In this document: positions 1 through 29,499 of the stretch, one piece after another
How positions within the stretch are numbered: position 1 is the first letter of the stretch
Layout: every line of letters starts with the position of its first letter
Assembly: GCA_964016885.1 (NCBI GenBank)
Contig: OZ024740.1
Location: forward strand, 70,866,001-70,930,000
Direction of reading: 5' to 3'
Source of the DNA: Eledone cirrhosa
Lineage: Eukaryota
Length of the DNA stretch: 64,000 nt
The notes under the pieces: generated by a model
Told to the model about the DNA's origin: nothing
Databases searched by the model: none
Seen by the model: only the letters and a program-made list of their open reading frames with translations
Program-made: the position numbers and the translations under genes

Positions 1-1266
1 ACAGCCTCGAGGAGTTCGGAGAACAAGACCGGCATAGCTAAATAAAGTTCGTATGGTAGACCATCGAGACCCGGAGATTTGCGTCTGCTGCATTGGCTGA
101 GCGCTTCACCGATTTCAGCGGCTGTGATTGGCCTTTCGCAGCACTCCGCTTCGCCGCTCGAAAGACGCGGTAGACCGTCGAGGTATGGACCGAAGTCCAC
201 ATCCCCGTCCGGCCCCACGCCCCCTCCGAACAGTCGAGCAAAGTGCCTTTGAAAGGCCTCGCACATCCGCTCAGGTTCAAGGATCACCCGTCCATCCTGG
301 TCTCGCAAAGACCGAATGGTGGATTTAATCCCACTCTTGGCTTCTGTCACGCGGGCCCAGCTAACAGCGTTGGTCCCCTCGTTTTCTAAAGCACGTATTT
401 TACTTCAGACAACGCAGCCTTCGTGCTTCGCGTCAAAGAACTGGCTCAACGCCGTTCTCGACGCTAACACTCTGTCCACGTCTCCGCTCCTAATCGCCTC
501 TCCTAGTTTATCTGTTAACTCCCTTTCCCTCCTATTTCTATTCGCCGCTAGTTCCTTACTGTAACCTATCGAACTTACTTTAATCTCTCTCTTTAGAGAT
601 ACCCACCACCTGCTGTTGACGATCGCTCCCGTCAACCGCATCTTAACTAAGCTACTAATCCGGTTCCTGTAATCTTTCTTTGCCGGCAAGGACAAGTTCA
701 TCTTCCAGTAACCGGGACCCTGTCTATGCGTTCTATCAAGGTTGACCACACAGGTCACTAATTTGTGATCTGAATAGCCAACCATGAGCAATTCTGGACA
801 ACTAAATACGTTCCTATCCTTACTCCTAACCAAAAACCTATCTAGGTACGATCTAGATTGACCACTGCGGTTTGCCCAGGTCCAGGTTGGCACAGTTGGA
901 AAATCTAGTCGAAATCTATCGACCAGGTCGAATCGATGGAGTAACCCCTTGAGCCCCGCCTTCACCGCCTCCGACGTCCAGCACCAGTAATCGACCCCCC
1001 GGGTCCGAGTGAACAATCTGTACGTCGAGAGCCAGACGTTTATCCAGCAGTACGGCAACCCCACCCCCGCTTCCGGGTTGACAGAGAGATGCGTGCATCT
1101 TAAAGTCATCGAAGGCGGGAGCCAGCTGTCGCACGCTGCTGATCCGACTCTCGCAAACAACCATCACATCTATACTTCGTGACCTGAGGTCACTTAGAAG
1201 CTTTGCTTGCTTCCAAGCTGAGCCCAGGCCACGCGCATTCAAACAGCCAACTCTCAAGTGATCTAT
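1..1266 (-). pseudogene. Copy A ORF2, N-terminal APE endonuclease and linker, disrupted
   Basis: RVGCLNARGL, VCESR, SYLDRFL, SDHKLV, GPGYWKMN motifs; relative to copy C it lacks about 180 bp including the VGDWN catalytic motif (junction near 950). Confidence 0.88.
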
Positions 1267-3130
1267 TTTGGTGTTGAAAGTGAAGAAAGAAAAGCACCTA
1301 CCTCTCCGGGTTGTGTAATTTCCATGGGGTCGGGTGTGTTGGGTGGAGGGATGTTTTGTGGTGGTGTGGGGGTATCCGAGTGTGGTGGGGTTGGGGTATT
1401 TGGAGTTGTGTCAGGGAGAGGGGAGGTTATGGGGAAATCTTTCAAGAGGACGCGATTTATCGGTTTTAAACAGGGGGGGGGGGGCTGACGTCCTGTTTAA
1501 ATTGTTCTTTTCAGGAACGATAAAGGTCCAGAGGGACCTTTATCATTTTTAAATGGGTGAAGTTCTCTGTTGAGATAAAGTTTGGCCCTTCGGTCTGCAC
1601 CAAAAGGCTATTGTTTATTAATTTAAACAGTTTTTTGTTTTCTTTATTTATATATGTGTATTGCAAAGTCTTTTTTTTGTGATGCTGTCAATGTTTCGAA
1701 GAGGGGAGGCGCAGATTTATTTTTGTTTGTTGAGGGTGGGGTGTTTTTGATTGGAGTTGGTGTTTGTGTGTGGGTTATTTGTTGTTGTGGTGTGCTGGGT
1801 GTGTACTTTCGTTTTTTTCTTTTAACTTGTCTGAAGGCTTCTCCTCCTTCTTCTTCAGAAGTTGGGGGAAACTCTTCAGCGCTAGGTGGGAGGGACGTGG
1901 TGTCTGGTTGTTGTTTTTTTGCGGGAGGGGTAGATTTGTTGCTGTTTTTTTTATTATTAGTTTGGAATATGTTTTGTGGTGGTTGTGGTGGTGGTGATGT
2001 TTGTGTCGTGCTTGTGGTTGGTGATGGTGGTGGTGATGTTTGTGTTGTGGTTGGTGATGGTAGTGGTGATTTGTGTGTCGTGCTTGTGTTTGGTGCTGGT
2101 GGTGGTGATGTTTGTGTTGTGCCTGTGGTTGGTGTTGTCTGTATTTTGTTTGCTGTGTGTGGTATTAGTGTATTTTTGGAGGTGGGTGGTGTTGGTGTAC
2201 TGTTTGTGGTGGGTGTGGGCAATAGTCCTTTTTGGGGGATACGATTCGGGCAGTTAGCCTTAACGTGTCCCCTTTCCATGCATGAATAGCATGCTGGTTT
2301 TCTCCCCTCTACAATTATATATATTGGGGTGAGGTCATCCAGCCAGATGCGATCCGGGATTTGCGCTATTCTTTCGGGCCTCATTTGGACTAGTAGGTCG
2401 AGGCCCATTCCCAGGAACGCATCTCCAGATGCCTTCCCCATTGACAGCACTGTGTCCGCGCCCATGTCTATGAAGCCAGCAATAGCCCACCAGAAGTCCA
2501 TTGTGGGCAGCATTGTCTGTATTTTAACTCTCTGTTTTCTTCTACCCATGGAGGAGGGATAGAAACTGTATGCTGTTGATGAGAGTGGGCTTAGGGAAAG
2601 CCTCTGTGCAGTTTCCTTGTCTTTTGTTAAAACAGAAATGCTGCCATAGAGTTGGTCCTTTCGTATGAAGAGAATATTCTTCATATAGTCTTTTAGGACC
2701 AACTCTATTTCCATTTGGCTGGGCTGTGCTGGCTTTCTCGAGTGGTTTAGAATTGTTCTAAACAGAACAGTGTTTTCTAGTCTCGTTTTCTTGAATTCTG
2801 GAGGGGAATTAATGGAAAACATTCCGTTCTCCCCCAAGACTATGCGTTGTTTTGCTTCTGCCAGTTTTTCTCTGGCGGCAGTCAAGTCAATAGGTGTATA
2901 TATTATAGATTTTTTTGTTGTCTGGGCGAAAGTTGCCTTGTTGTTTTTTGTATTCTTATTTTCTGTTTGTTTGTTTTCCGTTTGCTCATTTTCCGTAACA
3001 TTTGTTTTTTCATTTTCCTTGTTTGTTTCGTTGTCTAGTTTTGTTGTATCCATTTTTTGTTCTTCAGACTTGGGGGGGGGGGGGGCGTGGCAGAGCTAAT
3101 GGCAGACATGTCTGCCATCTTTCCCGCCAT
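1263..3130 (-). pseudogene. Copy A ORF1 (gag-like nucleic-acid-binding protein), frameshifted
   Basis: CYSCMERGHVKANC = CX2CX4HX4C knuckle, then a Pro/Thr-rich region; probable start MAGKMADMS at 3130, out of frame across a C14 run. Confidence 0.85.
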
Positions 3131-3338
3131 GCGTCCAACAAAGAATTTTTACAGAAAAATAGTTATTTATTTTATTTTACCCCCTAAAAAGGGGGTAAAT
3201 GTAAAAATGTTTCCCTAAATAACAGGGGTAAGTGTTCCAAATGTGTTGCACTGAAAAAATTCACTGGTACTTACTATAGTAAGGGTAAATTCCGATAGAA
3301 TAGCAGAGCCGATGTGAAGCGTGTCTCACTCTATCAAT

Positions 3339-3339
<1 letters not shown>

Positions 3340-3417
<78 letters not shown>
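3340..3417. repeat. (GATA)n microsatellite between Tx1 copies A and B
   Basis: Direct reading. Confidence 0.97.
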
Positions 3418-3656
3418 TGTTTCATTATTAGCCACAGGGGCACAAAAGAAGGGGACAAATACAAAGGGGGAAGTTTACATACAATAAAAACGTGTAAAAT
3501 ACTATCACAAATGCAATTTAAAAATTAATCGATTTTCCCCAAGAGGGAGAGACATTACATATGGGTAGCACATACCCCCGAAAAAAATGTGCAACCCTCA
3601 TCACCAGGAGTACGAAGAGTTTGTACTCCTTTCCTCTCCTCCTCTTTTTCCTCAAC

Positions 3657-6600
3657 CTACAAGCTGATATAGAGAGAAGGCCCATTCACTCAGGCCATTT
3701 TCGCCACTTTCACCCACCTTTCATAAAACTTGCTGGGGTACAGCACCTCTCTCTCCATCTTGATTCTTCTTCCAAAGTGGTATTTGAAAAAAAGAATCAG
3801 TTGTTGGCCGGAGAGAAAGGTGTCTGACCTCAGCCCTTTTAACCTCGTCCACCACCTCTTCCATACAACCACCTCGTCCATACAACCTCTTTCGCCATAG
3901 CTATCACACAAAGGAAAACCGCCTCTCCTTCGTTTTTGAAGGAGGGTGGAGGTTTGATCATGACAATGGACTCGGTGGTCAACCGGGTTGGTCCCACCCG
4001 CGACAATAGTCGTTCTACATAGCCCCACAGGTCGGTAACGCCCGGGCAGTGTACGAATGCGTGCGCGATGGTTTCTTCGTATCGCACGCATCTCGAACAG
4101 ATCTTTTTCGAAAGGTCCCTGCCCGGGCGCCCATGTTTGTAGAGCTTGTCTCGAACTGGTAGAGCTCCTCGATAGCACTGCCAGGCCAGGGACTTTTGGA
4201 AGTTGTCTATCGGTCCCGGTCAGAAGGTTCTACCGAACAGACTAGCCAGTTCGTCTTTCTCTACGCCTAGAGTTTCTCCGAGCGCGTCGTCGCACTTGCT
4301 GCGGACCAACCCTCTATAGAATGACGAAGTGGAGTCTCCGCTGATCGCCGGGTCCGCCTGCCAGAGGGCTGTAAGCGCCTGAGCACATTCGATGTGCCAG
4401 TCACCCATTGTCCTCGGTCTTTGCTTGACCCAGGACTGCAGCTCGGTCAGCGAGACGAGTCGTGGGAAGGCTCGCCTCACGAACGGGGCCCATACCGGTT
4501 GTCCGGTGAGGAATACGTGGCGGTGCCGCAGCCTGAGCGCGTGTTTGCGCATCGTCAGCCACGGTATCCCGGCCCTCCGCCTAAAGGGTGTTGGCAGCAG
4601 ATGGATCTTCTCACCAAAGGAGCCCGTTTCTTCCAAAGGAATTGGAAGAGCGCGCGCTCCATTTTGGTGAGAGTTTTGGCTGCACAAGGCACGACGGTCA
4701 AGCGGTAGTAGATGACGGACGCTATAAAAGTGTTCGCCACCTCCGCTCGACCTTTCAAGGATAGTTTGCACTCGGCCCACTTCTGGGTGAGCGCAAACAC
4801 CTTGGTCGTCACCTCGTTCCAGTTCTTCTCCACCTGGAGGTCCGGACCAAACCAGACCCCGAGCAGCTTTACCGGTCCTTCCGTCCAGCGTCCGACGACG
4901 CCATCGGATCGCATCGGTTTGCCTCTCCACGATTCGAGTTGCAAACCGACGGACTTGTCCCGGTTCAGCTTCGCTCCTGTGAACCTTTCGTATTCCTTCA
5001 GTAAGGTGCCGACTTCCTCGATTTGCGAGGTGCTCGACACCATTACTGTCACGTCATCGGCGTAGGCCGACGCTGCTTTCCGCAGTCTCGGTTGTAGAGG
5101 GATGCCCTGCAATAGCTCCAACTTCCGCAGTAGTGGCTCGAGAGTCAGTACGCACAGAAGGGAGGAGAGAGGGCATCCCTGTCGGATGGATCGCGTGATA
5201 TGGAACGGCTCCGAGAGGTAGCCGTTCACCTTGACCCTTGAACAGATGTTGCTGTTGTGCATTGCAGCAATCCAGCCCCTGAACACGGGTCCGAAGCCTG
5301 CCGCCTCGAGCACCGCATCCAGGTAACGATGGTCAACCCTATCGAAAGCCTTAGACTGATCCAAGTTGATCAGGACCCCACCGAAGCCGGGTTTACACCC
5401 TACCCTCTCTATGAAGTATCGCATGAGGTGGAGGTTGTCGTATATGGACTTGGTCGGGATTGCGCATGTCTGCGCTTCTCCCACCAGGTTTTCGACGACA
5501 AGCGCCAGCCTCTTTGCCAACACCTTCGCCAAAATCTGTAACTCTGTGTTTAGAAGAGTTATGAGCCGGAAGTTGCCTATGTCATCCTCCTTATTCTCGT
5601 CCTTCCTGACTAGTGTGACTACGCCCCTGGTCACAGAACTGGGAATTCTCCCGTTCTGCTGCCAGTTGCAGTAGACCGCTTCCAGGAGACCGGAGAACAA
5701 GTCCGGCATTGCTACGTAAAATTCGTAGGGTAGACCGTCGAGACCTGCATTGGCTCAGCGCGTCCCCTATCTCAGCGGCTGAAATCGGCTTTTCGCAGAA
5801 CTTCTCCTTGCTGTCCGAGAGTCGCGGTAGGCCGTCGAGGTATGGACCGAAATCCATAGCCCCTCCCGGCGCGCCGCCCTGCCCGAACAGCTGAAAGGCC
5901 GCGCACATCTGCTTCGGCTCACGTATCACGCGTCCGTCTTGGTCCGTCAAAGACCGAATCGTGGACTTGTTGCCACTTTTCGCCTCCGTCACCCGGGCCC
6001 GGCTAACAGCTTTGGCTCCCTCGTTACCCAGAGCACGTATTTTGCTTCTGACAACGCAGCCCTCGTGCATTGCGTCGAAGAACTGGTCTAAGGCCGTTCT
6101 CGTTGCTAGCACGCTGGCTACGTTCCCACTTCTAATTGCCTCTTCTACTTTATCTACCAGTTCCTTCTCGGTCCTATTTCTATCTAACGCTAATTCTTTA
6201 CTAAAAACTAACGAGTCTAATCTAACTGCCCTCTTGAGAGAGTACCACCATCTGTTGTTGACAATGGCCCCTGTCAAGTGCTGTTTAACTAAAGTGCTAA
6301 TCCGTCTACTGTAGGCTTTGCATGTCGGTAACGACAAGTTCAGCTTCCAGTAGCCGGGTCCTTGTCTATGGGTTCTATCAAGGTTGACCATGCAGGTCAC
6401 TAGTTTGTGGTCTGAATAAGCAACCATGAACATTTGTGGACAGCTTAACATGTCCCTATTCTTATTTCTAACTAGAACCCTATCTATGTACGATCTAGAT
6501 GTTCCGCTAATATTAGTCCACGTCCTCAGTGGCACAGTCGGAAAATCTATTCGATATCTATCGGCCAGGTCAAATCGGCCGATTAACTGTTTGAGGCTGT

Positions 6601-7079
6601 TACACCCCCCCCCCCTTTATCGGGACATGCTCCCACATAGTCTCAACGTGCATCTAGGATTCCATTCCAGTCCCCCACTAAAAGCAAGGAGCGGGACGTT
6701 CCCAGAAAAGTCTCTAGACGTTTGAAGAAGTCTGGCCGCGGTGTCCCGGATGGAGCATAGGCGGCCAGAAGGCTCCACCTTCACTACCGTCAACATCTAG
6801 GACCACCAGTCGACCCTCCTGGTCTAGATGTACCGTCTGTGTTACGAGGTCCAGGTGTTTCCGCAGCAAAACGGCAACCCCGCACCCACCTCGCGGCTGA
6901 CAGAGAGATGCGTAGATCTCAAAGTCGTCGAAGATGGGGGCCAGTTGTTGCTCGCTGTGAATCCCGGACTTGCAAATGGCTACTACATCCATACTGTGCG
7001 ACCTGAGGTCGTTTAAAAGTTTGCCCTGTTTCCAGGGCAGCCCCAGGCCGCGTACACATCCAACTCTTATATTGGCCAT
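3657..7079 (-). pseudogene. Copy B ORF2 (APE endonuclease + reverse transcriptase), several frameshifts
   Basis: MANIRVGC, SDHKLV, LDQSKAFDRVDH, RQGCPLS, AYADDV, ETIAHAFVHC motifs. Confidence 0.92.
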
Positions 7080-8821
7080 ATTGGTGCTGAAAAGTTAAAA
7101 GAAGAGGAAAAGAAATCACTCACCTCTTTGTCTCCTGGGGACCAGGCTGCACGATTTCTATGGGGGTGTTGGAGGGGTTGTCTGGGTGGGTGGTGGTTTC
7201 CGGTGGGGTGGGGATGGAGATGTTTGGTGGGGAGGGGTGTCTGGTGGGGTAGGGTGTCTGGGGTGAGGGTGGGAAACATTTTAAAAGGACGCGGTTAATG
7301 GGTTTAACACAGGGATTACCCACGTCCTTAGGAAAGTTTTCCTTTAAAGACTTATAGGTGTCCGTAGGGAGCCTAATCATCTTTAAATTAGGTCTGTCTG
7401 CACAGTTCGAAAAGTTTTCCCTTCGGTTTTCACCGAAGGGTCGTGAGAGATGACCTCCATTAAAGTTTTGTTTTCACTGTTTATGTATGTGTAATGTTCT
7501 TGTTGTGTTGCGGTGATTTTTGTCTGTTGTTCCTGTGGGAGCTTTCGTTTTGTTGTAGGTGTTTGTGTTTGGAGTGATGTCGTGGTTTTGTTTTCGGGAC
7601 GGGGGGGGGTTGTAATGTTTGTGTTGTTTGTGTTGGGGGTTGTATGTTTGTAGTGACGTTTGTTGCTTTTTTGTTTTCTTGTGGTGTCTTTTCTTCTTTC
7701 TTTTCGAACGGAGAGGCTCTCCTTCATCGTCACTTGGTGATGATGACGGGGCCTCGTCCGTTGTGGTGTATGTGTTATTTGGAAGGGGTATGTTTTGGGG
7801 AGCTGGTGTGTTTGTGGGTGTTTTGCAGTGGTTTTAGGTGGAGTTGGGTTGGGTGGGACTGTGCTTGCAGTTTGATTTGTTGTTCTTGTTTTGGTTATGT
7901 TTGCGTGTTGTTGTTGCTGTTGTTGTTGTTGTTGTTGTGGTGGTGGTGGTGGTGGTGGTGGTGGTGGTGGTGGTGGTGGTGGTGGTGGTGGTGGTGGTGG
8001 TGGTGGTGGTGGTGGTGGTGGTGTTGTTGTTTGGGGTGTTGGCAGTAGTGCCTCTTTTTTTGCAGCTAGCTGAGGACAGTAAGCCTTCAGGTGACCACTG
8101 CTTAAACAGTGGTAACATGAAGGCCGCCGACCCTCAACAGAAATGTTTATGTATGAAATCCCATCCAGAGGCACACGTTGGGGTATTTTAGCTATCCGTT
8201 CTGGCCTCATTTGGAACAGAACTTCCAGGCTTGTACCATTGAATGTGCCTCTGGAGGACTTTCCCATTGCAATTATTGTGTCTTCATCGAAATCGATGAG
8301 GCCAGTCAAAATCCACCAGACGTTTACGTTTGGTGTAATATTTGAAATTTTAATTTTTGGGGTTCTTTTTCCCATATATGTGGGGGAAAAGGTGTAAAAG
8401 GGGGACACAATTGGCGACACAGAATATGTTTGTGCATTCAATTGGTCTTTCATCAGCACCGAAATGCTTCCAAAAAGTTTACCTTTTTGGATGAAGGCAA
8501 TATCCTTCATTGATTTGTTCAAAACCAGTTCAATTTCGTTTTGGGATAATTGGACTGGTTTTTTAAACACATTTGAAACTGTCCTAAAAATTATTGTTTT
8601 TAGGATAGTTTCTCGACGTAACTGTTGAGGAGAAGTGATGCTGAAAGCACCACTCTCACCAAAAGTTACATAGTGCTTTGCTTCTTTCAACAACTCCCTA
8701 GCATTGGAGATGTCTCGATATGTAAACAGTTCCGTCTTTTGGACGGTTTGTGCAAAGGAAATCTTTTCCTTGTTTGTGGAGTTGTTCGTGTTGCTGTTGT
8801 TGTTGGTGGTGTTGTTGTTAT

Positions 8822-8852
<31 letters not shown>

Positions 8853-8942
8853 CTTGTTGTCATGATTGTTGTTGTTCTGGTTGGTGTTGTTCACATTTTT
8901 CATGTTATTGGTGTTGGTGTTACAATTAACGTTCGACAACAT
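7067..8942 (-). pseudogene. Copy B ORF1 (gag-like), frameshifted, with in-frame poly-Asn, poly-Pro and poly-Gln tracts
   Basis: CYHCLSSGHLKAYC knuckle; QMRPERIA and VEGRRP motifs shared with copies A/C. Confidence 0.85.
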
Positions 8943-9272
8943 GTTTTCAAAACTGACGATATTTTTAACGTCTTTCAATGAGGTGTTGAGTGGAGATGAC
9001 TGCGAGCTTAACACTCTCACCGCCTCTCCACCACTTCTAGTACTGGACTTAATGCAAAATTTTGTTTACAATTTTTCACCGAAAAAATTTTTTCAAACGA
9101 AAATTTCACCCCAGGAAGGGGTGAAAATGAGTTGACCCACCGTCTGAAGGTCCAGACGTGGGGTCAAGCTATAAAATAGTATCAAATTTAACAATAATTT
9201 TTTTGATTTCTTATGTAGAAAATCAACAAAAACTTACCAGTGAACTGGCACGCGTCTATCGAGATGAGAGAG

Positions 9273-9290
9273 AGATAGATAGATAGATAA

Positions 9291-9365
<75 letters not shown>
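9273..9365. repeat. (GATA)n microsatellite between Tx1 copies B and D
   Basis: Direct reading. Confidence 0.97.
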
Positions 9366-9762
9366 TCTTTTTTTATTTGCCACAAGGGCGTACAAAAATG
9401 GGACATTACAAAACGTGACGGCGAGGTTTTTACACAAAAATAACTTTAACATTAATAAATAACAATAAACTATATATAATAAAATAACAATTGAAATCCC
9501 CAATAGGAGGGAACGTTACTGCAGGGTTTTTTTACACCCCGTGGATAAAACAACCCTCAACACCAGGAATACTTTTTGTACGTGTTCCTGTCTTCCCTCT
9601 GCTCATCTTCCTCAACCTACAGGTTTATATACAGAGAAGGCCCATTCACTCAGGCCATTTTCGCCACATTCACCCACCTTTCAGTGAATTTACTGGGGTG
9701 TAGCACCTCTCTCTCCACTCTCGCCTTCCTTCTGAAGTGATAGTTAAAGAAGGGGATAAGTT
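9366..9762 (-). mobile_element. 5'-truncated Tx1 copy D (ORF2 C-terminus + 3' UTR)
   Basis: Matches the B/C ORF2 end (gagagaaggcccattcactcaggccattttcgccac) and the 3' terminal motif; 5' junction flanked by TATCTATCTATC. Confidence 0.88.
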
Positions 9763-9859
9763 GATAGATAGATATGCGAAAGGTCAACAGGGAAAAAACA
9801 ACACAGGCGGAGAATATACTATATTGGTTTATATAGTATATTAGTTTAACGCATAGAAA

Positions 9860-10264: not shown

Positions 10265-11030
10265 TAAATGATGACATACAAGAAGCTAACTCAGCAAATA
10301 AAAAGGCACGCTGCAATCATTACCTTGAAGGCAGAGCATAGTGAATTAGAGATTGCTCGTTTCCTAAAAGTTGCATGGTCGTAAGTTTTCAAAGGTCACA
10401 TAGTGCTGGAAGACATTGGCGTGGATTCTACAGCAGCAACCAAACGTAAAACGCCTGCTAAAGGTCCTAAAACCATCAGAACACACAAATTTGTACGAAA
10501 TTATCGATAAGGACCGCAGAAAAGCAATTAGTGCTATTGATATGGAACTTAAGGTTTCAAGGCACACTATCGGAAGAATTCTGCATGAGAACTTAGAATC
10601 CAAGTCATATGTAAAGCAGAGAGACTAATTCATGTCTGCAAAGATAACTGTTTGATCCTCGCAAAGCACTTGTTGAGCAAGTTGAAACATCAAGTGTCTG
10701 GAATGCTTTGATAAGAAAAACTTTGATCAGGAGCAAAAGGTTAACCGAAGTAATGACAGATAGCTATGCAGAGACCCTAGAGAGGTACCAACGGTCATGC
10801 ATACAAAGTTTCAGGCAATTATAATGGTTCTGGGAGTCGTGAGCAACAAAGGAGATGTCATGCCGCTTCACTTCTTTCATTATAGCTTAAGAGTCAACAC
10901 TGCTGACTATAAGAAGGTGTTGAGGAGATACTATAGATAAAGAGCGTGAGCAAAGGAAGACCGTGCACTTACCAACAAGACGCTGAGTCGTCTCATAAGG
11001 CCAAGGCGACCCAAGAATGGGTTACAATCT
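10265..11030 (+). pseudogene. Tc1/mariner (maT/DD37D-like) transposase remnant
   Basis: Fragments VSRHTIGRILHENL, MHTKFQAIIMVLGVVSNKGDVMP, RPCTYQQDA..HKAKATQEW, with stops and frameshifts. Confidence 0.75.
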
Positions 11031-11214
11031 CCAGATCACGTCCCCCCAGACATATAAAGTGTTCAGTCCACCTACCCATGATTCCTGCTGAATCTTTAAT
11101 GGGGACGTTCCCATCGTTTGACGTTAATGTTACCACTTTTGATGACTGTGTCAAACACTTATCTTATTGTGCTAAATAATACCTTCAAGTATCTGCAGTT
11201 ATAAGCTTTATGTA

Positions 11215-13398: not shown

Positions 13399-13768
13399 TG
13401 CATAGTAGCTGCCAACTCGTTTTCGAGTACGGCCACTACTTTATATCCATGTAGGAGAACCCCTACCGATGCGCTGAACGAGTGTGACTTTTTAGTCCAG
13501 CCAGCGACTTGAAAACTCTGGTACAAACACTACACTTGTGACAATTATTGACACATAGTGCTGGGCCCATGGTACCATGTGACGACAAGTGCAGAGAGAT
13601 CTCCAGATATAAAGCAATGCCTGTGCCGTGAAGCTTTTATAGTGAGCAAAGGCACTACACAAAGCCAGTCCCACTCTCTTAACCAAGATGATATTTACCA
13701 AAAAGAAGAACAAGTCAACATCATTTGATACCATCAGGGTTGCAGGTGTTATATCAGAGTTTTCCTTC
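13399..13768 (-). mobile_element. RTE-derived bipartite non-autonomous element, 5'-truncated copy
   Basis: Near-identical to 15389-15991 and 53469-54032; (TATG)n on both sides. Confidence 0.85.
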
Positions 13769-13826: not shown

Positions 13827-15290
13827 CGCAATTACAACCGTTGTACACAGTGGACCTACGAGTCCAAGTGTGCATATTTGGCAGTAAAACGTGGAAGAGC
13901 TGTGCCCTCCTCTAGAAATCTAGAGATGAACGGCCTGACAATACAACCTCTGCAGTCAGGTGACAACTACAGATATCTTGGACAGGATGAGAATGTCAGA
14001 TATGATGGACCCATAAATAAGGAGAAAACCAGAACTGAATACCTCAGAAGAGTAAAGAAAATATGGTCATCAGAACTGTCAGCATACAACAAATACATTG
14101 CCCACAATACTTATGCTGTGCCAATTCTAACGCCAACATTTGGCCTACTGAACTGGTCATTGCAAGAACTAAGTGAGATGGATGTTAGAACTCGAAAACT
14201 TCTCAGTGTTACTGGGAACTTTAACATCAATGGTGATGTGGATAGGCTATACTTCTCACGCAAGGAAGGTGGCCGGAGTCTAAAATCAATATTAACAACA
14301 TATGAGACCCGGATAGTGACACTGAAGCAACACCTTCAACAGAGGAAAAAGGTTGGCAACCATCTTGCCCAGGTTTATGACCATGAAAAAAGAAATATCA
14401 TTAGAATAGCGACTGATCTGGAGGAGAGATATGGAATAAAGCCCGATATAAATCTCTCACCCAGAGAAATCGGAAGATCCTATTCAATGTTCAAACAAGA
14501 AAAAAAAATTGACCAATTTATAGAAAAAGTTGTGCATGGATACTTGAGGCGTAAAACACAGACCATAGAGGGGATAAACCACTCAAAAAGCCTGGCATGG
14601 AGTTCCGACAAGTTTATGACATCACACCTTGAGGGATATCTCTATGCAATACAGGAACAAGAACTCCCTACCAAATATCTGCTGCACAAAAGAGGAGGGC
14701 CAGCAGCTGACAATAAATGTAGGCTATGTAAAACAAAGATCGAGGATGTAAGCCACATTGTTGCCAGCTGCGAAAGAATGTCATCTCGCTACTACCTCCC
14801 CATGAGACACGATGGGATAGCTAGAACCATCTGGAACGCACTTCGGAAAACAAAATTAACAACAAACGAGGAAGAATATATTGAGACAGATGGCACTAAG
14901 GAATACTGGTGGAACCTGAAAATAAAAACTGCCACCAGATTAAAGCACAACCGGCCTGATATTGTAGTTTGGGACCACACATTGAAAACGTGTTCTGTTG
15001 TGGAGATCAGCTGCCCACTTGATGTAAACGTTGTCAGAAAAATACAGGAGAAGGAGGACATCTACGGACCATTGATGAGGAGTTTACAAATCCAGTATCC
15101 AAGATACACCTTTAGCTTCATACCCATCATTATTGGTGCTACGGGTTATATACCAACCCGCTTGGACCAAAGTATGACTGAACTTGGATTTGCGGACAAA
15201 AAGCGCAGCTCCCTAATTCATAGTCTACAAATGGCTGCGATAGCTGGCACCTTCAAAATTTGCAAAACATTCTTGCGTTTCAAGGGATGA
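13827..15290 (+). CDS. RT C-terminus/thumb + CCHC Zn finger + restriction-like PD-(D/E)XK endonuclease (N-terminally truncated)
   Basis: YRYLG, DRLYFSRKEGGR, CRLCKTKIEDVSHIVASC, RHD, RPDIVVWD..VEISCP..KEDIY; no internal stop. Confidence 0.88.
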   Translation, partial: RNYNRCTQWTYESKCAYLAVKRGRAVPSSRNLEMNGLTIQPLQSGDNYRYLGQDENVRYDGPINKEKTRTEYLRRVKKIWSSELSAYNKYIAHNTYAVPILTPTFGLLNWSLQELSEMDVRTRKLLSVTGNFNINGDVDRLYFSRKEGGRSLKSILTTYETRIVTLKQHLQQRKKVGNHLAQVYDHEKRNIIRIATDLEERYGIKPDINLSPREIGRSYSMFKQEKKIDQFIEKVVHGYLRRKTQTIEGINHSKSLAWSSDKFMTSHLEGYLYAIQEQELPTKYLLHKRGGPAADNKCRLCKTKIEDVSHIVASCERMSSRYYLPMRHDGIARTIWNALRKTKLTTNEEEYIETDGTKEYWWNLKIKTATRLKHNRPDIVVWDHTLKTCSVVEISCPLDVNVVRKIQEKEDIYGPLMRSLQIQYPRYTFSFIPIIIGATGYIPTRLDQSMTELGFADKKRSSLIHSLQMAAIAGTFKICKTFLRFKG

Positions 15291-15371
15291 CAATTTCTTT
15301 TCTTTTACAACCTTGCCACCAGGAAGGTGGCCGGTCAAAAAAATATACTCAAAATTAAGAGAAAGAGAAAA
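13827..15371 (+). mobile_element. R4/Dong-like RLE non-LTR retrotransposon, 5'-truncated, inserted in (CATA)n
   Basis: Open frame to 15290, short 3' UTR, (CATA)n at both junctions. Confidence 0.9.
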
Positions 15372-15388: not shown

Positions 15389-15991
15389 ATGGTGGCTGCC
15401 AACTCGTTTTCGAGTACGGCCACTACTTTATATCCATGTAGGAGAACCCCTACCGATGCGCTGAACGAGTGGGACTTTTTAGTCCAGCCAGCGACTTGAA
15501 AACTCTGGTACAAACACTACACTTGTGACAATTATTGACACATAGTGCTGCTCCCATGTGATGACAAGTGCAGAGAGATCTCCAGATATAAAGCAATGCC
15601 TGTGCCGTGAAGCTTTTATAGTGAGCAAAGGCACTGCACAAAGCCAGTCCCACTCTCTTAACCAAGATGATATTTACTAAAAAGAAGAACAAGTCAACAT
15701 CATTGGATACCATCAGGGTTGCAGGTGTTATATCAGAATTTTCCTTCTCCTAGAATTCTGCCTTGACAAAGGCTAAGGGGTCATCTCTCCCGGTGATTTT
15801 GGATGGCCATTGACTCTTAAGAGCTCTTTTGCCTTTTGACAGGTTTAGTTTTTAGTCCTGCAGAATATCCAAAGTCACCCTCCTCACCAAGAAACCTTGG
15901 TGGGGTTGCCAGTTTAGTCGCCAACGACCCGACCATGAGACAGGTTGTACTGGGATACATGTTACCAGTAGCACCAACTGGTGACCTGACA
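15389..15991 (-). mobile_element. RTE-derived bipartite non-autonomous element, full-length copy (~600 bp)
   Basis: Non-coding head (TCAGGTCACCAGTTGG...) joined to a 3' end matching the zinc-finger LINE fragment at 52599-53059; (TATG)n on both sides. Confidence 0.85.
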
Positions 15992-16560: not shown

Positions 16561-17116
16561 ATGGTGGCTGCCAACTCGTTTTCGAGTACGGCCACTACTT
16601 TATATCCATGTAGGAGAACCCCTACCGATGCGCTGAACAAGTGTGACTTTTTAGTCCAGCCAGCGACTTGAAAACTCTGGTACAAACACTACACTTGTGA
16701 CAATTATTGACACATAGTGCTGGGCCCATGGTACCATGTGACGACAAGTGCAGAGAGATCTCCAGATATAAAGCAATGCCTGTGCCGTGAAGCTTTTATA
16801 GTGAGCAAAGGCACTGCACAAAGCCAGTCCCACTCTCTTAACCAAGATGATATTTACCAAAAAGAAGAACAAGTCAACATCATTGGATACCATCAGAGTT
16901 GCAGGTGTTATATCAGAGTTTTCCTTCTCCTAGAATTCTGCCTTGACAAAGGCTAAGGGGTCATCTCTCCCGGTGATTTTGGATGGCCATTGACTCTTAA
17001 GAGCTCCTTTGCCCTTTGACAGGTTTTCTTTTTAGTCCTGCAGGATGTCCAAAGTCACCCTCCTCACCAAGAAACCTTGGTGGGGTTGCCAGTTTAGTCG
17101 CCAACGATCGACCATA
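16561..17116 (-). mobile_element. RTE-derived bipartite non-autonomous element, slightly 5'-truncated copy
   Basis: Near-identical to 15389-15991. Confidence 0.85.
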
Positions 17117-19699: not shown

Positions 19700-20060
19700 A
19701 CTTTTAGTGGGACATGACCAGATAGGAAGATCGCCTTCTAGCTAAAACTGGGTCTGTACAATACCTTGATCGTTTCCATTGCCACATACGGAGGCAAAAA
19801 CTGGATTCATAAGAAAGAAGATGAAAATAGACTACAGCCTTTTGAAATGTAATGCCTGGGGTTTATAGCAGGCATAAGGATGAGAGACAGGAAAACGAAT
19901 GACGTAGATAGAGACAAGACGGGAGCTAATATTGCGATAATCCAAGTCATCCAGAAGCGATTAGTCCAATGGTTTGGCTATAGCATTTGCCAACCAGATA
20001 TATCTACGGCCTGGCAAGTATTCCAGGAAGATTTGCATGTGTCGAATAAAAAAAAAGAAA
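19700..20060 (+). pseudogene. Degraded RTE RT C-terminal fragment
   Basis: YGGKNW..EDENRLQPFEM, RDRKTND, IQKRLVQWFGY. Confidence 0.55.
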
Positions 20061-20214
20061 AAAAAACCATAGTTGTGAGGTTAAGGCGTTCACTTCGTAA
20101 CAAGCTGGCTCTGGGTTTATTTCCGGTGCGTAACACCTTGGGCAAATATCTTCTACTATTGCCTTGAGTTGATCAAAGACGGAAACTGCAGAAGCCCGTC
20201 GTATATATAACAAA

Positions 20215-20313
20215 GAAAGTGTGGTAAGGAACCATGTGGACCATAACGCACCAGAGTACTCGATACTTAGGGTAGTAGAGTGGGTAATAAGAAAAGAGTC
20301 AGGACCCCGACGG
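20215..20313 (-). mobile_element. Short (TA)n-associated repeat, 3' fragment of the fold-back family
   Basis: gtggtaaggaacca.gtggaccataacgcacca.agtactc shared with 30890, 40240 and 45886. Confidence 0.75.
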
Positions 20314-20344
20314 CTATATATATATATATAAATATATATATATG

Positions 20345-20411
<67 letters not shown>

Positions 20412-21879
20412 AATGTACGAAGCCGAATTTTCGGCTTTCTAAGCGGTAAGAATATAAAAGTATAAAGAAAGTGCTTAAGCATAGAAATGCTGTAAAGAAA
20501 GCTTATAAAATAGGGTGAAAACCGTTAAAAGAATTTTCCAACGAGCGCTATCAGGAATTGAACTACATATCATCCAGATAGCGGCTAGAAGTCATCTGGA
20601 AGATATGGTTTCAATTAATTCCTCATAGCGGTCGTTAGTAAATTCTTTTTCTGTCTTTTAAGGGTCTTCATCCTATTTTATAAGCTATCCCTATAGCATT
20701 TCAGCGCTTAGGCACGTTCTTTATACTCATATATATCATTAGTTGTTTGTAGGGGAAAATAATATTAAAAGTATATAAACATGAAAATAATTAAGTAAAT
20801 AAAGTAAATATTCGTCTTTAATAATTGATAGAATAACCGAACCCGATATCAAACGATGTAAAATATTTAAGCAAATCCATACGTAAGTGTAAAGTAGGTA
20901 AGACCATAAATATTCCAAAGGTAAATATTTATAATATATTAATAATATAACTTTAAAAAAAGGTTTGAGTATTCAAACAATCACGGTGGTTGAGTGGTAC
21001 AACTGCTGGTTACATAATTGTATAATTACTGATTTTAAATGGAAAAGACTGTTCGGAGTTCCATCTCCTCGCGCCCATACGAAGAAGACTTCTGTTTCTC
21101 GTTTTGCAACTGGAAGGTAGAAGTTTTGTGTATCTGACAATAGCGATGCATGGTATTGCTGGCCATAGGCAAGTCCCTAGCAGGACTGAAAAGCCACCTC
21201 CGTGATGCTCATGCTTAAGTATCAAGCGATGGCATTACTCGAAATCAAGTTGCAGTCATTATCATCATATATATATACATATGCACACACACATATATAA
21301 ATAGATATGTATGTATGTATATTAAGTGTTAAAGCCCGAAGCTCATTACTATTATATTGTGGATGTGCATATTTCACAAGATCTTTTTTATTGGAGAAGG
21401 TAAGAAATTCTTAATATATTCTATAATCCGTATTTTTACTTTACAATTTCACGGTCAATTGCATACACAGAAATAGAGAGGACTTTTTTAAAATGTTATT
21501 TGTTCGATACAAAAATTGAATGATAGTATTGTAGTTGAGGGTGGGCCCCTTTGTCTCATCATGGCAACCAATATTTTTAGACCTAGTCCGCCAATGTATA
21601 TATATGATGTATATATATACGTGTGTGTGTTCGTATCTGTGTTTACGGTTGTATGTATCCCATAACCTAGCGGTGCAACGAGGAAGTACTAGACTTGAAA
21701 AAGTGAATACTGAGGTCTATATTATCGACTAAGTCGAAGCAGTGGCGCAGTCTACTGACTGAAATAAGTAAAACTAAAATAAAATATATAGTATAAACAC
21801 TGAATGAATAGATGGCTGGGTCAATGACCTGTGAAAGACTGGTGCAAAATTACGAGAATTACAGAGGCTGACTTTGGAG

Positions 21880-22980
21880 GAGTGATGCTAAAGCTGTGAA
21901 GTCTTTAATGCATTAATTTCAACTCTTCTTATTAATATCTGCATTGTTCTTTTCCAGGTAAACTGGCATCTGACTGATCAAAGAAGACTTTAAAAGTAAC
22001 TAGTAGCCACTTCTCTTGAAAATGGACAAAATTTGTCATCGTGGTGTTATCAAGTACCTGAAGAAAAAAGGTTTACTGCCCCAAGGAATTCATGCTGACA
22101 TGGTTGCTACATTATGAGATGATGCTATAGCCTTATCAACAATGCAAAATTGGGCTGCTGAATTTAGGAGGGGAAGGGAGAGTCTTGAAGATGACCCAAA
22201 GCTGGACGTCCTGCAACTGCCACCACTTAGGTAAACATTGACCGTGTTCACCACATGGTGATGGATGAGAGGCGATTGACTATATATCAAATAGCCAATG
22301 CTATTAACATGTCTCATAAGAGAGTTGAGATTATTCTGCACAATAAATATGACATGACAACTGATCAAAAGCAAACCAAGCTGATCACATCACATGAAAA
22401 CCTGACATTGTTGGAAGCAGATTCAGATGGGTCCTTGAACGTTTTCTAACCCAGGATGAGTGCTGGGTTCATCACCTTGAGTCAGAGACAAAGAGACAAT
22501 CCATGCAGTGGAAACACCCCTCCTCATCTCCTCCAAAGAAGTCCAAGGTCATTTCATCTGCAGGGAAGTTGTTGGCCTCAGTTTTGGGAGATGCAAAAGG
22601 CATTGTGTTTATTGTCCATCTTCAAAAGGGTCACACCATCAATGGAGAGTACTATACCAACTTGCTGAGGCAGTTACGAAAGGCTATCAAAACCAAATTC
22701 CATGGAAAACTGACAAATGGGGTCTTGTTTCTACAGGAAAATGCTCTAGCAGACAAGTCCTTGTTTCAATGGTTGCTGTGCGTGACTGTGGCCCCATCTG
22801 ACTACCATATTTTCCCCAGCATGAAGAAATACTTGGCTGGGAACCAGTATCGCAGTGATGATGACGTCATATCTGCTGTTGGTGACCTTTCGACCAGAAG
22901 AATTAAAGCTGCTTCACCAATGGCACCCAAGTACTGCAACACCGAACGAAGAAGTGTGTGGACCGTAAGGGGGACTAAAA
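21880..22980 (+). pseudogene. Mariner transposase remnant
   Basis: MDKICHRGVIKYL, WAAEFRRGRESLEDDP, DECWVHH..ETKRQSMQWKH, SAGK, TINGEYY, APSDYHIFPSMKK. Confidence 0.88.
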
Positions 22981-23939
22981 AAAAGAATTTCGATACACAC
23001 ACACAAACAATACAAAAATGTCACATACCCATACGTGGAGAGACACATACACGCACTTACACATAAACATATATATACTCATTCGTGCAAAATCATACAC
23101 GTACGAACACATACACTAAAAAAAAACTACACAAAAAACATACATAACATACACACACATACACACATAAAACACAAAAGAATTCCGACACACGTGAAAA
23201 TATGTACATTCACACATAAATGTACACACTCACACACACATAAACAATACAAAAAAGTCAGACACACACGTGCAAATACACATACACACACTCATACTTA
23301 AACATAAACACACACTCTTATGAAAACATACTCATATACGCACGTGTATACACACACACACACACACAAACACAAACACACACACCAAAAAACACGCATA
23401 AACATACACACACATGCTTATACACCGACACACACATACATACCTATACATAAATACACACATACTTACATGCAGACAAAATAACGAAAAAAACAAACAA
23501 AAGAATTCACAGGCACACACAAACAATATAAAAGACACACAATCGCGCACATGTACACACAGACATACACACACAGAAGCAATGATGAACACCTACGGAA
23601 TTCCCCTCCTCGGCACATACATTACCACACCCGGACTCTCCTCCTCGACCCCTACTCCCAACCTTCTTAAAAACCTTTTTCCAAAATCCGATGTTCCTAC
23701 CTGTTTTCTCTCTCTCTCACTCTATCTATCTATCTTGATAGAGTAAGACACGCTTCACATCGGCTCCGCTATTCCATCAGGATTTACCCTTACTATTGTA
23801 AGTACCGGATAAATTTTTCAGTGCAACACATTTGGAACACTAACCCCTGTTATTTAGGGAAACATTTTTGCATTTACCCCCTTTTTAGGGGGTAAAATAA
23901 ATATCTATTTTTTTGCCGAAAAATTTCTTTCTTGGCAGC

Positions 23940-25788
23940 ATGGCGGAAAAGATGGCAGACATGTCTGCCATTAGCTCTGCCACGCCCCCCCCCCCCCCCC
24001 AAGTCTGAAGAACAAAAAATAATTACAACAAAATTAGACAACAAAACAAACAAGGAAAATGAAAAAACAAATGTTAAGGAAAATGAGCAAACGGAAAACA
24101 AACAAACAGAAAATAATACAAATAACAACAGGGCAACTTTCGCCCAGAAAACAAAACAATCAATAATATACACACCAATTGACTTAACTGCCGCCAGAGA
24201 AAAACTGGCCGAAGCGAAAAAACAAATAGTCTTGGGAGAACGGAATGTTTTCCATTAACTCCCCCCCCCCCCCCCAGAATTCAAGAAAGCCAGAACAGAG
24301 AGCACAGTTCTCTTCAGAACTATACTGAACCAGACAAGAAAGCCAGCACAGCCCAGCCAAATGGAAATAGAGTTGGTCCTAAAAGACTATATGAAGAATA
24401 TTCTCTTCATACGAAAGGACCGAGTCTATGGCAGCATTTCGGTCCTAACAAAAGACAAGGAAACGGCGGAGAAGCTTTCCCTAAGCCCACTCTCATCGAC
24501 AACATACAGCTTCTATCCCTCCTACATGGGTAGAAGAACACAGAGAGTAAAAGTAAAAACAATGCTGCCCACAATGGACTTCTGGTGGGCTATTGCTGGC
24601 TTCATAGACATGGGCGAAGACACAATGCTGTCAATGGGGAAGGCAACTGGAGATGCGTTCCTGGGAATGGGCCTCGACATACTAGTCCAAATGAGGCCCG
24701 AAAGAATAGCACAAATCCCGGATCGCATCTGGCTGGATGACCTTACCCCAATAGACATAATTGTAGAGGGGAGAAGACCAGCATGCTATTTATGCATGGA
24801 AAGGGGACACGTTAAGGCTAACTGCCCGAAACGTATCCCCCAAAAAGGACTATTGCCCACACCCACCACAAACAGTACACCAACACCACCCACCTCCAAA
24901 AATACACTAATACCACACACAGCAAACAAAATACAGACACCACCAACCACAAAGACAACACAAACATCACCACCACCAGCACCAAACACAAGCACGACAC
25001 AAAAATCACCACCACCAACCACAACACAAACATCACCACCACCATCACCAACCACAAGCACGACACAAACATTACCACCACCACCACAAAACCCATTCCA
25101 AACAAATAATAAAAAAAACAGTAACAAATCTACTCCTCCCGCAAAAAAACAACAACCACACAACACGTCCCTCCCACCTAGCGCTGAAGAGTTTCCCCCA
25201 ACTTCTGAAGAAGGAGGAGAAGCCTTCAGACAAGTTAAAAGAAAAAAAAGAAAACACACACCCAGCACACCACAAATAACCCACACACAAACACCAACTC
25301 CAATCAAAAACACCCCACCCTCAACAAACAAAAATAAATCTGCGCCTCCCCTCTCCGAAACATTGACAGCATCACAAAAAAAGACGTTGCAATACACATA
25401 TATAAATAAAGAAAACAAAAAACTGGTTAAATTAATAAACAATAACCCTATGGTGCAGACCGAAGGGCCAAACTTTATCTCAACAGAGAACTTCACCCAT
25501 TTAAAAATGATAAAGGTCCCTCTGGACCTTTATCGTTCCTTAAAAGAACAATTTAGACGGGATGTGAGCCCCCCCCCCTGTTTAAAACCGTTAAATCGCG
25601 TCCTCCTGAAAGATTTCCCCATAACCGCCCCTCTCCCTGACACAACTCCAAATACCCCAACCCCACCACATACGGGTACCCCCACACCACCACAAAACAT
25701 CCCTCCACCCAACACACCTGATGCCATGGAAATTACACAACCCGGAGAGGTAGGTGCTTTTCTTTCTTCACTTTCAACACCAAAATAG
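23940..25788 (+). pseudogene. Copy C ORF1 (gag-like, CCHC), frameshifts at or near C runs
   Basis: CYLCMERGHVKANC; continuous 475-aa frame 24361-25788; probable start MAEKMADMS. Confidence 0.87.
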
Positions 25789-28700
25789 ATCAATTGAGAG
25801 TTGGCTGTTTGAACGCGCGTGGCCTGGGCTCAGCTTGGAAGCAAGCAAAGCTTCTAAATGACCTCAGGTCACAAAGTATAGATGTGATGGTTGTTTGCGA
25901 GAGTCGGATCAGCAGCGTGAGACAGCTGGCACCCGCCTTCGATGACTTTGAGATGCACGCATCTCTCTGTCAACCCGGAGGCGGGGGGGGGGGTTGCCGT
26001 ACTGCTGGATAAACGTCTGGCTCTCGACGTACAGATTGTTGACTCGGACCCGGGGATCGATTACTGGTGCTGGACGTCGGAGGCGGTGAAGGCGGGGCTT
26101 TCAGACTGGTCGGTCTTTATGCCCCCTTCGGGGCGGAAAGAGCCGACTTCTTCCAGCGTCTGGAGACTTTTCTAGGAACGTCGCGTTCCCTGCTTTTAGT
26201 GGGGGACTGGAATGGGATCCTAGATGCGCGTTGGGACTATGCAGGGGCATCTCCCGATAGAGGGAGGTGTAGCAGCCTCAAGGGGTTACTCCATCGATTC
26301 GACCTGGTCGATAGATTTCGACTAGATTGTCCAACTGCGCCAACCTGGACCTGGGCAAACCGCAGTGGACAATCTAGATCGTACCTAGATAGGTTTTTGG
26401 TTAGGAGTAAGGATAGGGACGTATTTAGTTGTCCAGAATTGCTCATGGTTGGCTATTCAGATCACAAATTAGTGACCTGCGTGGTCAACCTTGATAGAAC
26501 GCATAGACAGGGTCCCGGTTACTGGAAGATGAACTTGTCCTTGCCGGCAAAGAAAGATTACAGGAACCGGATTAGTAGCTTAGTTAAGATGCGGTTGACG
26601 GGAGCGATCGTCAACAGTAGGTGGTGGGTATCTCTAAAGAGAGAGATTAGAGTAAGTTCGATAGGTTACAGTAAGGAACTAGCGGCGAATAGGAAGGAAA
26701 GGGAGTTAACAGATAAACTAGAAGAGGCGATTAGGAGCGGAGACGTAGCCAGAGTGTTAGCGGCGAGAACGGCGTTGAGCCAGTTCTTTGACGCGAAGCA
26801 CGAAGGCTGCGTTGTCCGAAGTAAAATACGTGCTTTAGGAAACGCGGGGACCAAAGCTGTTAGCTGGGCCCGCGTGACAGAAGCCAAGAGTGGGATTAAA
26901 TCCACCATTCGGTCTTTGCGAGACCAGGATGGACGGGTGATCCTTGAACCTGAGCGGATGTGCGAGGCCTTTCAAAGGCACTTTGCTCGACTGTTCGGAG
27001 GGGGAGGGGGCCGGACGGGGATGTGGACTTCGGTCCATACCTCGACGGTCTACCGCGTCTTTCGAGCGGCGAAGCGGAGTGCTGCGAAAGGCCGATCACA
27101 GCCACTGAAATCGGGGAAGCGCTCAGCCAATGCAGCAGACGCAAATCCCCGGGTCTCGATGGTCTACCATACGAACTTTATTTAGCTATGCCGGTCTTGT
27201 TCTCCGAACTCCTCGAGGCTGTCTATTGCAACTGGCAACAGAACGGGAGAATTCCCTGTTCTGTGACCAAGGGCGTGGTCACGCTAGTGAGGAAGGACGA
27301 GAGAAAGGGGGACGACTTAAGTAACTTTAGGCCCATAACTCTGCTGAATGCAGAGTTACAGTTTTGGCCAAGGTGTTGGCGAAGAGGTTGGCGCTTGTGG
27401 TGGGTGGTTTGGTGGGAGACGCGCAGACATGCGCTATCCCGTCCAGGTCCATTCACGACAACCTCCACCTCATGCGATACATCATAGAGAGGGTTGGCAA
27501 CGAACCCGGCTTTGGTGGGGCCCTGATTAACTTGGATCAATCTAAGACGTTCGATAGGGTCGACCATGGTTACCTGGATGCGGTGCTAGCGGCGGCGGGC
27601 TTCGGACCCGTTTTCAGGGGCTGGATTTCTGCCATGCACAGTGGCAACATCTACTCTAGGATTAAAGTAAACGGCTAGCTCTCGGACCGTTTCAAATCAC
27701 CCGGTCCATCAGACAGGGGTGCCCCCTCTCCTCCCTTCTGTACGTATTGACTCTCGAGCCACTGCTGCGGAAATTGGAGTTGCTGCGGGGCATACCCCTG
27801 GAACCGGGATTGCACAAAGCGGTCTCGGCCTATGCCGACGACGTAACAGTAATGGTGGCGGACGCCTCGGAAATCGGGGCGATCGCCACCCTACTGGAGG
27901 AATACGAAAGGCTGACAGGGGCTAGGCTGAACCAGGACAAGTCAGTCGGTTTGCAACTCGGAACGTGGAGGGGCAAACCGATGCCGTTAGACGGTGTCGT
28001 CGGGCGGTGGACGGAGGGCCCGGTGAAGCTGCTCGGGGTCTGGTTCGGACCGGACCTCCAGGTGGAGAAGAATTGGGGCGAGGTGACGAGCAGGGTGTTT
28101 GCGCTGACCCAGAAGTGGGCCAAGTGCAAACTATCACTGAAAGGTCGGGCGGAGGTGACGAACACTTTTATAGCGTCCGTCATCTACTACCGCCTGACCG
28201 TCGTGCCTTGCCCCAAGGAAAAGCTCACCATCATGGAACGCATGCTCTTCCAGTTCCTCTGGAAGAAGCGGCCTCCCATGGTGAGGAGATCCATCTGCTG
28301 CCAGCACCCTTCGAAAGGAGGGCTGGGTATGCCGTGGCTGTTGATGCGTAGGCACGCATTGAGGCTACGGCATCTACAGGTATTCCTCAACGGTCAGCCG
28401 GTGTGGGCCCCGTTTGTGAGGCGAGCCTTCCCACAGCTCGTCTCGCTCACCGAACTGCAATCCTGGGTGAAGCAAAGACTGAGAAAACTGGGCAACTGGC
28501 ACACCGAGTGTGCCCAGGCGCTCACGGCTATCTGGCAAGCGGACCCGACTATCAGTGGAGAATCCACCTCGACATTCTATAGAGGGTTGGTGGCTAGCAA
28601 GGGCGACGACACCCTTGGAGAGTCGCTAGGCATGGAGGAGGACGAACTGGCCAGCCTGTTCGGTAGAACTTTCGGCCCGGGACCCATGGACAACTTCCAG

Positions 28701-29213
28701 AGGTCCCTAGCCTGGCAGTGTTACCGGGGGGCTCTGCCCGTTCGAGAAAAGCTCTACAGACACGGGCGCCCGGGCAGGGATCCCGCGAAAAAGATCTGTC
28801 CTAGATGCGTGCGCGACGAGGAAACCGTTGCGCATGCACTGGTACACTGCCCGGGCGTTGCCGATCTGTGGGGCTACGTCGAACGACTGCTGTCGCGTGT
28901 GGCGCCGATTCGATTAACCGCCGAGTCTGTGGTGAACATCAAGCCGCCTCCTCCCTTCAGAAATGAAACAGAGGCGGTCTTTCTGTGCGTAATAGCCATG
29001 ATGAAAGAGGTTGTGTGGTGGACGCGCCTGAAAGGTCTGAGGTCGGGTGACTTTCTCTCCGGCCATCACCTGGTTTACTTCTTCCGATATCACTTCGGAA
29101 GAAGGATCAGGATGGAGAGAGAAGTGCTTGGCCCCAGACAGTTTTATGAAAGGTGGGTGAAAGAAGCAAGAATGGCCCGTGTAAATGGGCCTTCTCTCTA
29201 CATTGTTCTGTAG
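25785..29213 (+). pseudogene. Copy C ORF2 (APE + RT + C-terminal CCHC), frameshifts and one stop
   Basis: VGDWNG, SDH, DQSKTFDRVDH, RQGCPLS, AYADDV, CPRC..EETVAHALVHC. Confidence 0.93.
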
Positions 29214-29447
29214 GTGAAGAAGTGAAGAGGAAAGGGGGAGCGCCTCCTCTCTGGGCTTCCCCCGCGAAAAGAGTTGCACACTTTTCGGGGGTATGTGCAA
29301 TCCCCAACACATCTCCCTTTTGAGGACTTTTTATTGTTATATTATTATTGTTATTCCTTTTTCTTTACTCGATTTATGTAAACTCCCCCACTGTGTAAAT
29401 GTCCCCTTCTTTTGTGCCCTCGTGGCAAATAAATATCTATCTATCTA

Positions 29448-29499
<52 letters not shown>

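Follow-up and report, generated by a model that had tools for sequence, protein, structure and literature searches.

An L1-group LINE lineage with a probable TATC preference in Eledone cirrhosa

Four copies of an L1-group LINE, A to D, lie in the window, the whole stretch of 64,000 nucleotides of Eledone cirrhosa DNA analysed here, and all seven of their visible junctions carry TATC repeats read on the element strand, as had been noticed from the sequence alone. The junctions comprise five repeat tracts and four insertion events. In copies C and D the TATC is derived from the target. A genuine TATC preference of the lineage is very probable, on a basis of four insertions, three of them in one stack, in a window picked for this feature. 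Kojima's rule calls a family target-specific when the target is present in more than 20% of its flanks; here it is present at four of four insertions, in one window. The sequence-only reading had proposed a GATA-specific Tx1 lineage; what stands is a TATC-preferring lineage of L1/Tx1 type, the word "specific" describing four insertions in one selected window.

Copies and their junctions

Table 1. Features of the LINE lineage and of the ACAT-bounded repeat in the window.
Feature	Position	Strand	Remarks
Copy A, 5′ part	1..3337	-	runs past the window edge; 92–97% identical to C
(TATC)19 at 3417–3342, then TATA	3338..3417	-	between B 3′ end and A 5′ end
Copy B, full length	3418..9262	-	RVT_1 E 9e-28, zf-RVT E 1e-7
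(TATC)18 TATT (TATC)4 at 9365–9274, then 11 nt TCTCTCTCATC	9263..9365	-	between D 3′ end and B 5′ end
Copy D, 397 bp	9366..9762	-	third subfamily; 78% identical to B, 74% to C
A(TATC)3 at truncated 5′ junction of D	9763..9775	-	13 bp repeated at D 3′ end
TC(TATC)3, upstream member of the 14 bp duplication at C	23721..23734	+	preceded by (TC)6AC
Copy C, full length, broken frames	23735..29433	+	APE, RT, zf-RVT by Pfam
Terminal hairpin GCC-CYYGT-GGC, then AATAAA, without poly(A)	29416..29433	+	also 3425–3441 (-), 9373–9389 (-)
(TATC)5, followed by (TC)n	29434..29510	+	adjoins C 3′ end
Repeat of ~600 bp, copies	13404–13768, 15391–15988, 16563–17115	+	stacked with the LINE at 13827–15370
Repeat of ~600 bp, copies	54030–53471, 53057–52891	-	ACAT-bounded

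Copy A holds the 5′ UTR, ORF1 and the start of ORF2, with about 178 bp of the APE deleted, and its first bases, TTGATAGAG, are those of copy C. Copy B has several frame breaks, an ORF1 with a CCHC knuckle and an ORF2 made up of APE, RT and zinc finger. Its 5′ end was placed by analogy with A and C, and the sequence before that end is (TC)-rich and includes (TC)4. Within ORF1 of copy B, (CCA)29 at window 7937–8023 encodes a long poly-proline stretch followed by poly-glutamine. In copy C, ORF1 spans about 23940–25788 with one CCHC knuckle and ORF2 about 25790–29213; sequencing reads compared with this copy have indels at 25983, 26051, 27005, 27361 and 27686. Copy D is 5′-truncated within the last ~60 codons of ORF2. 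Pairwise identities (A–C 92–97%, B–C 77.5%, D–B 78%, D–C 74%; 74–97% overall) distinguish three subfamilies, in agreement with the earlier claim of several. No further copies were found by tblastn and blastn in the whole window.

Copies D, B and A are stacked head to tail, as had been stated, but the runs are not all that separates them, since 11 and 4 extra nt also lie between. Copy C stands ~14 kb from the stack on the opposite strand. TATC begins 0–4 nt from six of the seven junctions and 11 nt from the other; five adjoin it directly, one lies beyond TATA, and one beyond the 11 nt (TC)-rich sequence ahead of copy B.

The outer 5′ flanks of C and D each contain exactly (TATC)3, with no element end upstream of either; that of D lies at 9774–9763 with unique flank outside, and in the alignment the homology of D to B and C starts right at TATC x3. 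The full layout of copy C is (TC)6 AC TC (TATC)3, element, (TATC)5 (TC)n. The longest duplications across the element, 14 bp for C and 13 bp for D, both consist of TATC, although the last 1–3 nt of the latter may be microhomology. In the part of the window outside the copies (48,474 bases), a 12-nt TATC repeat occurs upstream of 27 of 96,900 points (2.8e-4). The three upstream units and the duplications in C and D together indicate that TATC is the target and not merely a tail. This upholds two observations of the sequence-only reading: that TATC at the 5′ end of truncated copy D goes beyond what a tail can give, and that copy C has TATC on both sides in the manner of a target site duplication.

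It is highly improbable that insertion is random and that TATC is nothing but a tail produced at the 3′ end by slippage. The 3′ runs do have more units (5, 18–22 and 19) than the outer 5′ runs, which have 3, and a 7-nt match to the coding sequence of B just upstream of D's TATC x3, found for 1.4% of 20,000 random flanks, casts a slight doubt on the 5′ junction of copy D. Against these points, random insertion would place TATC x3 upstream of C and of the truncated D with a chance of 2.8e-4 each, no duplication other than TATC is visible, and the relatives described below have no repeat tails (0/65). The free loci of at least 12 nt outside the copies number 1 for the AGAT class, 106 for AT, 46 for ACAT, 27 for AC and 10 for AG; TATC is thus rare among the microsatellites of the window, and a tail alone is insufficient as explanation.

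A target consisting of a (TC)n/(TATC)n compound, or of (TC)n as for Kibi, is also improbable. (TC)n does lie outside both TATC runs of C, B is preceded at its 5′ end by (TC)4, and the free locus at 39480–39580 likewise reads (TC)n-(TATC)9-(TC)n. However, there is no (TC)n at the 5′ flank of D or at the A/B junction, the duplicated bases are TATC, and none of the window's 10 free AG loci holds a copy. The free compound microsatellite as a whole, (TC)n-(TATC)9-(TC)n-(TA)n at window 39480–39646, resembles the predicted empty site of copy C. The first bases of the element and the upstream TATC form an inverted repeat.

At the 3′ end, the window copies have the order hairpin, AATAA(A/T), 0–6 nt, first TATC. 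The hairpin pattern gave three exact matches among the four listed, at a chance expectation of 0.07, with a motif that already assumes part of the stem; the hairpin is short and showed no excess stability over shuffled sequence. All three 3′ junctions are in the register A|TATC, for which the chance is 1 in 16. A 3′-end look-alike at window 33387–33433 (-), AAT-rich and without TATC, scored 35, a value reached by 3 of 1010 tiles, and was rejected as background.

Classification and relatives

The element belongs, by its encoded domains and insertion marks, to the L1 group of non-LTR retrotransposons. Pfam identifies Exo_endo_phos, RVT_1 and zf-RVT in the ORF2 pieces of B and C, so that the N-terminal APE, the RT and the C-terminal CCHC zinc finger of L1-group ORF2 are present, as are a target site duplication (13–14 bp) and 5′ truncation (copy D). 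An intact relative, P0002 (53% identical to B), matches human L1 ORF2p with E 9e-69 versus R2 with E 5e-16, these being the only groups with solved structures among the matches.

A CCHC knuckle in ORF1 characterizes the Tx1 clade and sets it apart from the vertebrate L1-type ORF1. ORF1 of A, B and C has one C-x2-C-x4-H-x4-C each; that of C matches zf-CCHC with E 0.006, under the Pfam cut-off, and the Atlas look-alikes of ORF1 are CCHC proteins (score 0.92). Membership in the Tx1 clade is likely, the trees having held no named Tx1 or L1 rows. The closest named relatives are Argonauta hians proteins (62–68% identity), the Argonauta relatives including GAB1606090.1 and GAB1599396.1, and in a tree of 28 chosen rows B, C and Argonauta form a 5-row clade with support 100/98; the same grouping came out of a quick 86-row tree, from which one short row had been dropped. 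The lineage is probably an octopod Tx1-type LINE.

Among the reads of four runs from three organisms mapped to 25100–29460, 118,221 of 12.5 million came from relatives. Diverged relatives are abundant in those runs (15,480, 62,263 and 2,457 contigs), and of 4,538 loose read ends the 24 looked at consisted entirely of diverged element sequence. The reads, cut at the terminal repeat, yielded no flanks. The genome, viral and metagenome collections gave no copies of the family to which the window copies belong, three viral pattern matches being left aside, and ORF1 as a query gave no matches in the sequence search. Among 361 proteins, no Y-L-S-I repeats, as which TATC would be translated, were found, only isolated 4-mers.

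More distant relatives (31–35%) in MAGs are located at a U1 snRNA gene and before a truncated 5S gene. At one locus (L043, 3036–10137) the 3′ portion of U1 snRNA comes after the 3′ end; at the other (L046) the truncated 5S rRNA gene lies at 4422–4534. Insertion at U1 or 5S genes is a behaviour of Tx1 families, Mutsu being the 5S-targeting one.

A sister clade with other junctions

A scan with an alignment as query gave 46 loci. One MAG, G001, accounts for 39 of them; its small contigs are evidently animal DNA within a bacterial MAG. It contains 90 ORF2 matches, mostly intact and in tandem, and their flanks have short repeats in common with the window. These families have RTs 49–53% identical to that of copy B and make up a sister clade of 17 rows with support 100/99 in the 28-row tree. 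Contigs C3–C19 of this MAG carry hundreds of kb of tandem LINE arrays of at least nine families, with most ORF2 frames intact. The 59 overlapping loci that were read cover part of the G001 contigs; head-to-tail arrays occur at L003–L041 and L052–L071, with up to about a dozen units of 6.4–6.8 kb each.

A unit in these arrays ends with the hairpin and AATAAA, followed by a family-specific spacer of 11–17 nt and then the next unit. The hairpin was present in 13/13 ends with the same loop and with the middle pair changed from C-G to G-C; judged by sequence, the hairpin-AATAAA end is thus common to the window lineage and the sister clade. A motif search, which counts motif-bearing ends and misses those without the motif, located 65 distinct 3′ ends, and in the 26–30 nt past AATAAA none of the 65 had A6 and none had TATC x2. 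No sister-clade family has a TATC run as its spacer. Three TATC x3 runs occur in the 772,839 bases of all loci retrieved, in flanks and not at the 3′ ends found. The junction of family F7 begins with a single TATC unit, too short to serve as evidence.

In one F2 array the 17-nt spacer stands at either edge as a true duplication, and 5′-truncated units directly follow the spacer at L032 and L025. The F1 spacer occurs in five contigs, of which the four visible outer flanks represent different loci, so that the spacer travels with the element. The beginnings of both visible F1 founder flanks resemble the spacer, at chance levels of 0.6% and 3.6%; a single F1 array has its two edges in view, and these differ. 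The spacer cannot be separated from the 5′ head in F4, F5 and F8. Array units are often 99.7–100% alike, and one truncation appears twice at L032; identical spacers can come partly from DNA-level tandem duplication, or from the APE cutting after AATAAA.

That new copies enter the 3′ ends of old copies after AATAAA, with TATC the chance site of a founder, is unlikely. The G001 arrays are in effect built in this way, and the 3′ end of B precedes A, as that of D precedes B. However, C and D both have TATC x3 without an upstream element end, C lies 14 kb off on the other strand, and the repeat is common to three diverged subfamilies.

Nine representatives of the sister clade have APEs 90–100% identical, with the endonuclease hairpin loop identical in 8/9, yet have eight unrelated spacers; the APE of the tenth, F7, is 44–46% identical. 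These sister APEs with different junctions weaken the explanation by the APE alone and favour pairing of a read-through RNA. So far there is no support for target choice by the APE of the kind assumed for Kibi and Koshi.

Other elements in the window

A 5′-truncated LINE at window 13827–15370 (+) has (ACAT)n on both sides and a zf-RVT match of E 5e-6. From its zinc finger and restriction-like endonuclease motifs we take it to be R4/Dong-like, and it is an apparent second microsatellite-targeting LINE. The non-coding repeat of ~600 bp (Table 1), whose copies are 88–96% alike, has ACAT runs at its borders in each of the five listed copies and is possibly the SINE partner of this LINE.

A broken long ORF at window 54831–57643 (+), without a Pfam match, has an inverted repeat near 57480–57645 at its end, and is presumably Penelope-like by its RT-like and GIY-YIG-like motifs. 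Mariner-type transposase remnants lie at window 22398–23066 (+), with Transposase_1 E 7.5e-19, and, by eye, at about 10500–11050. A minisatellite at window 36852–37632 has nested periods of 29, 144 and 289 bp.

Possible mechanism of target selection

A model in which pairing of the RNA end is the main target selector has about an even chance of being correct. Its directly observed base consists of the TATC junctions, the 13–14 bp duplications, the absence of poly(A), the conserved 3′ hairpin, the stacking and the rapid change of junctions among the relatives. The transcript would run on past AAUAAA into the TATC repeats behind the parent copy, a read-through that is surmised from the element ends, and would be cleaved some way beyond AAUAAA, so that target letters stay on the RNA. 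The APE would nick the GATA strand, permissively or with a modest preference, while ORF2p holds the 3′ hairpin. The UAUC end of the RNA could then pair with the nicked GATA strand, select the site and prime reverse transcription, and a further nick some 13 nt along would duplicate three TATC units. An insertion leaves TATC on both sides and the site is renewed, so that copies can stack head to tail. The RNA end of the lineage might once have caught a TATC run and then been locked on, because TATC runs are common; the lock seems to have lasted while the subfamilies diverged by 22–26%. Points against RNA pairing include the G001 families, which are relatives at 49–53% and may work differently, the 11 nt (TC)-rich sequence ahead of the 5′ end of copy B, and the sequence-specific endonuclease of Tx1L.

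That the APE itself recognizes and nicks (GATA)n, with the RNA end in a minor role, is possible but doubtful. The endonuclease of Tx1L nicks almost solely its own target (PMC1950540). The common register A|TATC of the three 3′ junctions fits such recognition, but is equally expected from inheritance through the RNA end. The hairpin loop of the APE has 9 residues and is similar in A/C, B and P0364, whereas it has 11 in the G001 families and is variable across the sister clade. The three units in both outer 5′ flanks can be compared with the three-repeat minimum of SART1 (PMC7265360). Against it stands the sister clade, where APEs almost alike in sequence accompany unrelated junctions. RNA pairing and APE recognition are compatible and not mutually exclusive.

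A wider version of RNA pairing, conceivable though on the unlikely side, is a clade-wide heritable target memory in which transcription of a poly(A)-less element would continue into the duplicated target beside it, and the 12–17 last RNA letters so gained would guide its next insertion, the octopod branch being locked on GATA repeats. With RNA letters as the guide, near-identical proteins would home to different sequences.

Relation to known target-specific LINEs

The microsatellites known as targets of APE or related LINEs are AC/ACAY, TC, TTC and TAA (PMC3812793) and also TG (PMC4640811), and the mechanism has been termed not well understood in a review (PMC3812793). Tx1 families are inserted at TTCC/TTTC in crocodilians, Kibi at (TC)n and Koshi at (TTC)n (PMC4494074). 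As in these, the present element is an APE-type LINE of the L1/Tx1 group in a short microsatellite in one strand orientation; unlike them, with their pyrimidine repeats, it has TATC and an invertebrate host. The pyrimidine-repeat target (TC, TTC, TTCC, TTTC) of the Kibi/Koshi group is absent, the duplicated bases being TATC. The non-repeat junctions of the sister families suggest that microsatellite targeting arose separately from Kibi and Koshi, which are here set apart by their descriptions and not by their sequences.

Tx1L of Xenopus and Tx1-Mar/SINEU-3 are likewise target-bound and of Tx1 type, and SINEU-3 forms tandem insertions with the duplicated target between them (PMC4494074). Their targets, however, are DNA transposons, and the specificity of Tx1L lies in its endonuclease, which is sequence-specific in vitro with a role for the hairpin loop (PMC1950540). 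SART1/TRAS1 and R1Bm are APE elements in short repeats, of which about three units are needed, and in SART1 and R1Bm annealing of RNA and target aids priming (PMC7265360). They differ in belonging to the R1 clade, SART1 being poly(A)-tailed and targeted to telomeres, and a change of junction family by family is not described in the available text of PMC7265360. In L2 elements a 3′ stem-loop is bound or recognized (PMC4176376).

Octopus vulgaris has 80 L1-Tx1 families covering 56.3 Mb, 13 of them recently active (PMC13282606); the family of the window may well be among them. A term search found no "target" in the main text of that paper, and no GATA, TATC, target or microsatellite in its supplement. 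No LINE family targeting GATA/TATC was found in the literature searched, outside which lie Repbase, Dfam, most subscription papers, and Fig. 3 and the supplements of PMC4494074, whose Tx1 target list may bear on novelty. In that literature the earlier supposition that the lineage had not been described holds. The TATC target is probably real, non-random and undescribed, in a known kind of element, the microsatellite-targeting Tx1-type LINEs.

A GATA/TATC target would enlarge the small set of APE LINEs that target microsatellites, and would link an abundant element family with GATA marker loci of cephalopods. A direct test between targeting by the protein and by the RNA end is offered by the sister families, whose frames are intact, whose endonucleases are near-identical and whose junctions differ. 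If the RNA end is the guide, the last letters of the RNA would provide a natural route to retarget an APE-type LINE.
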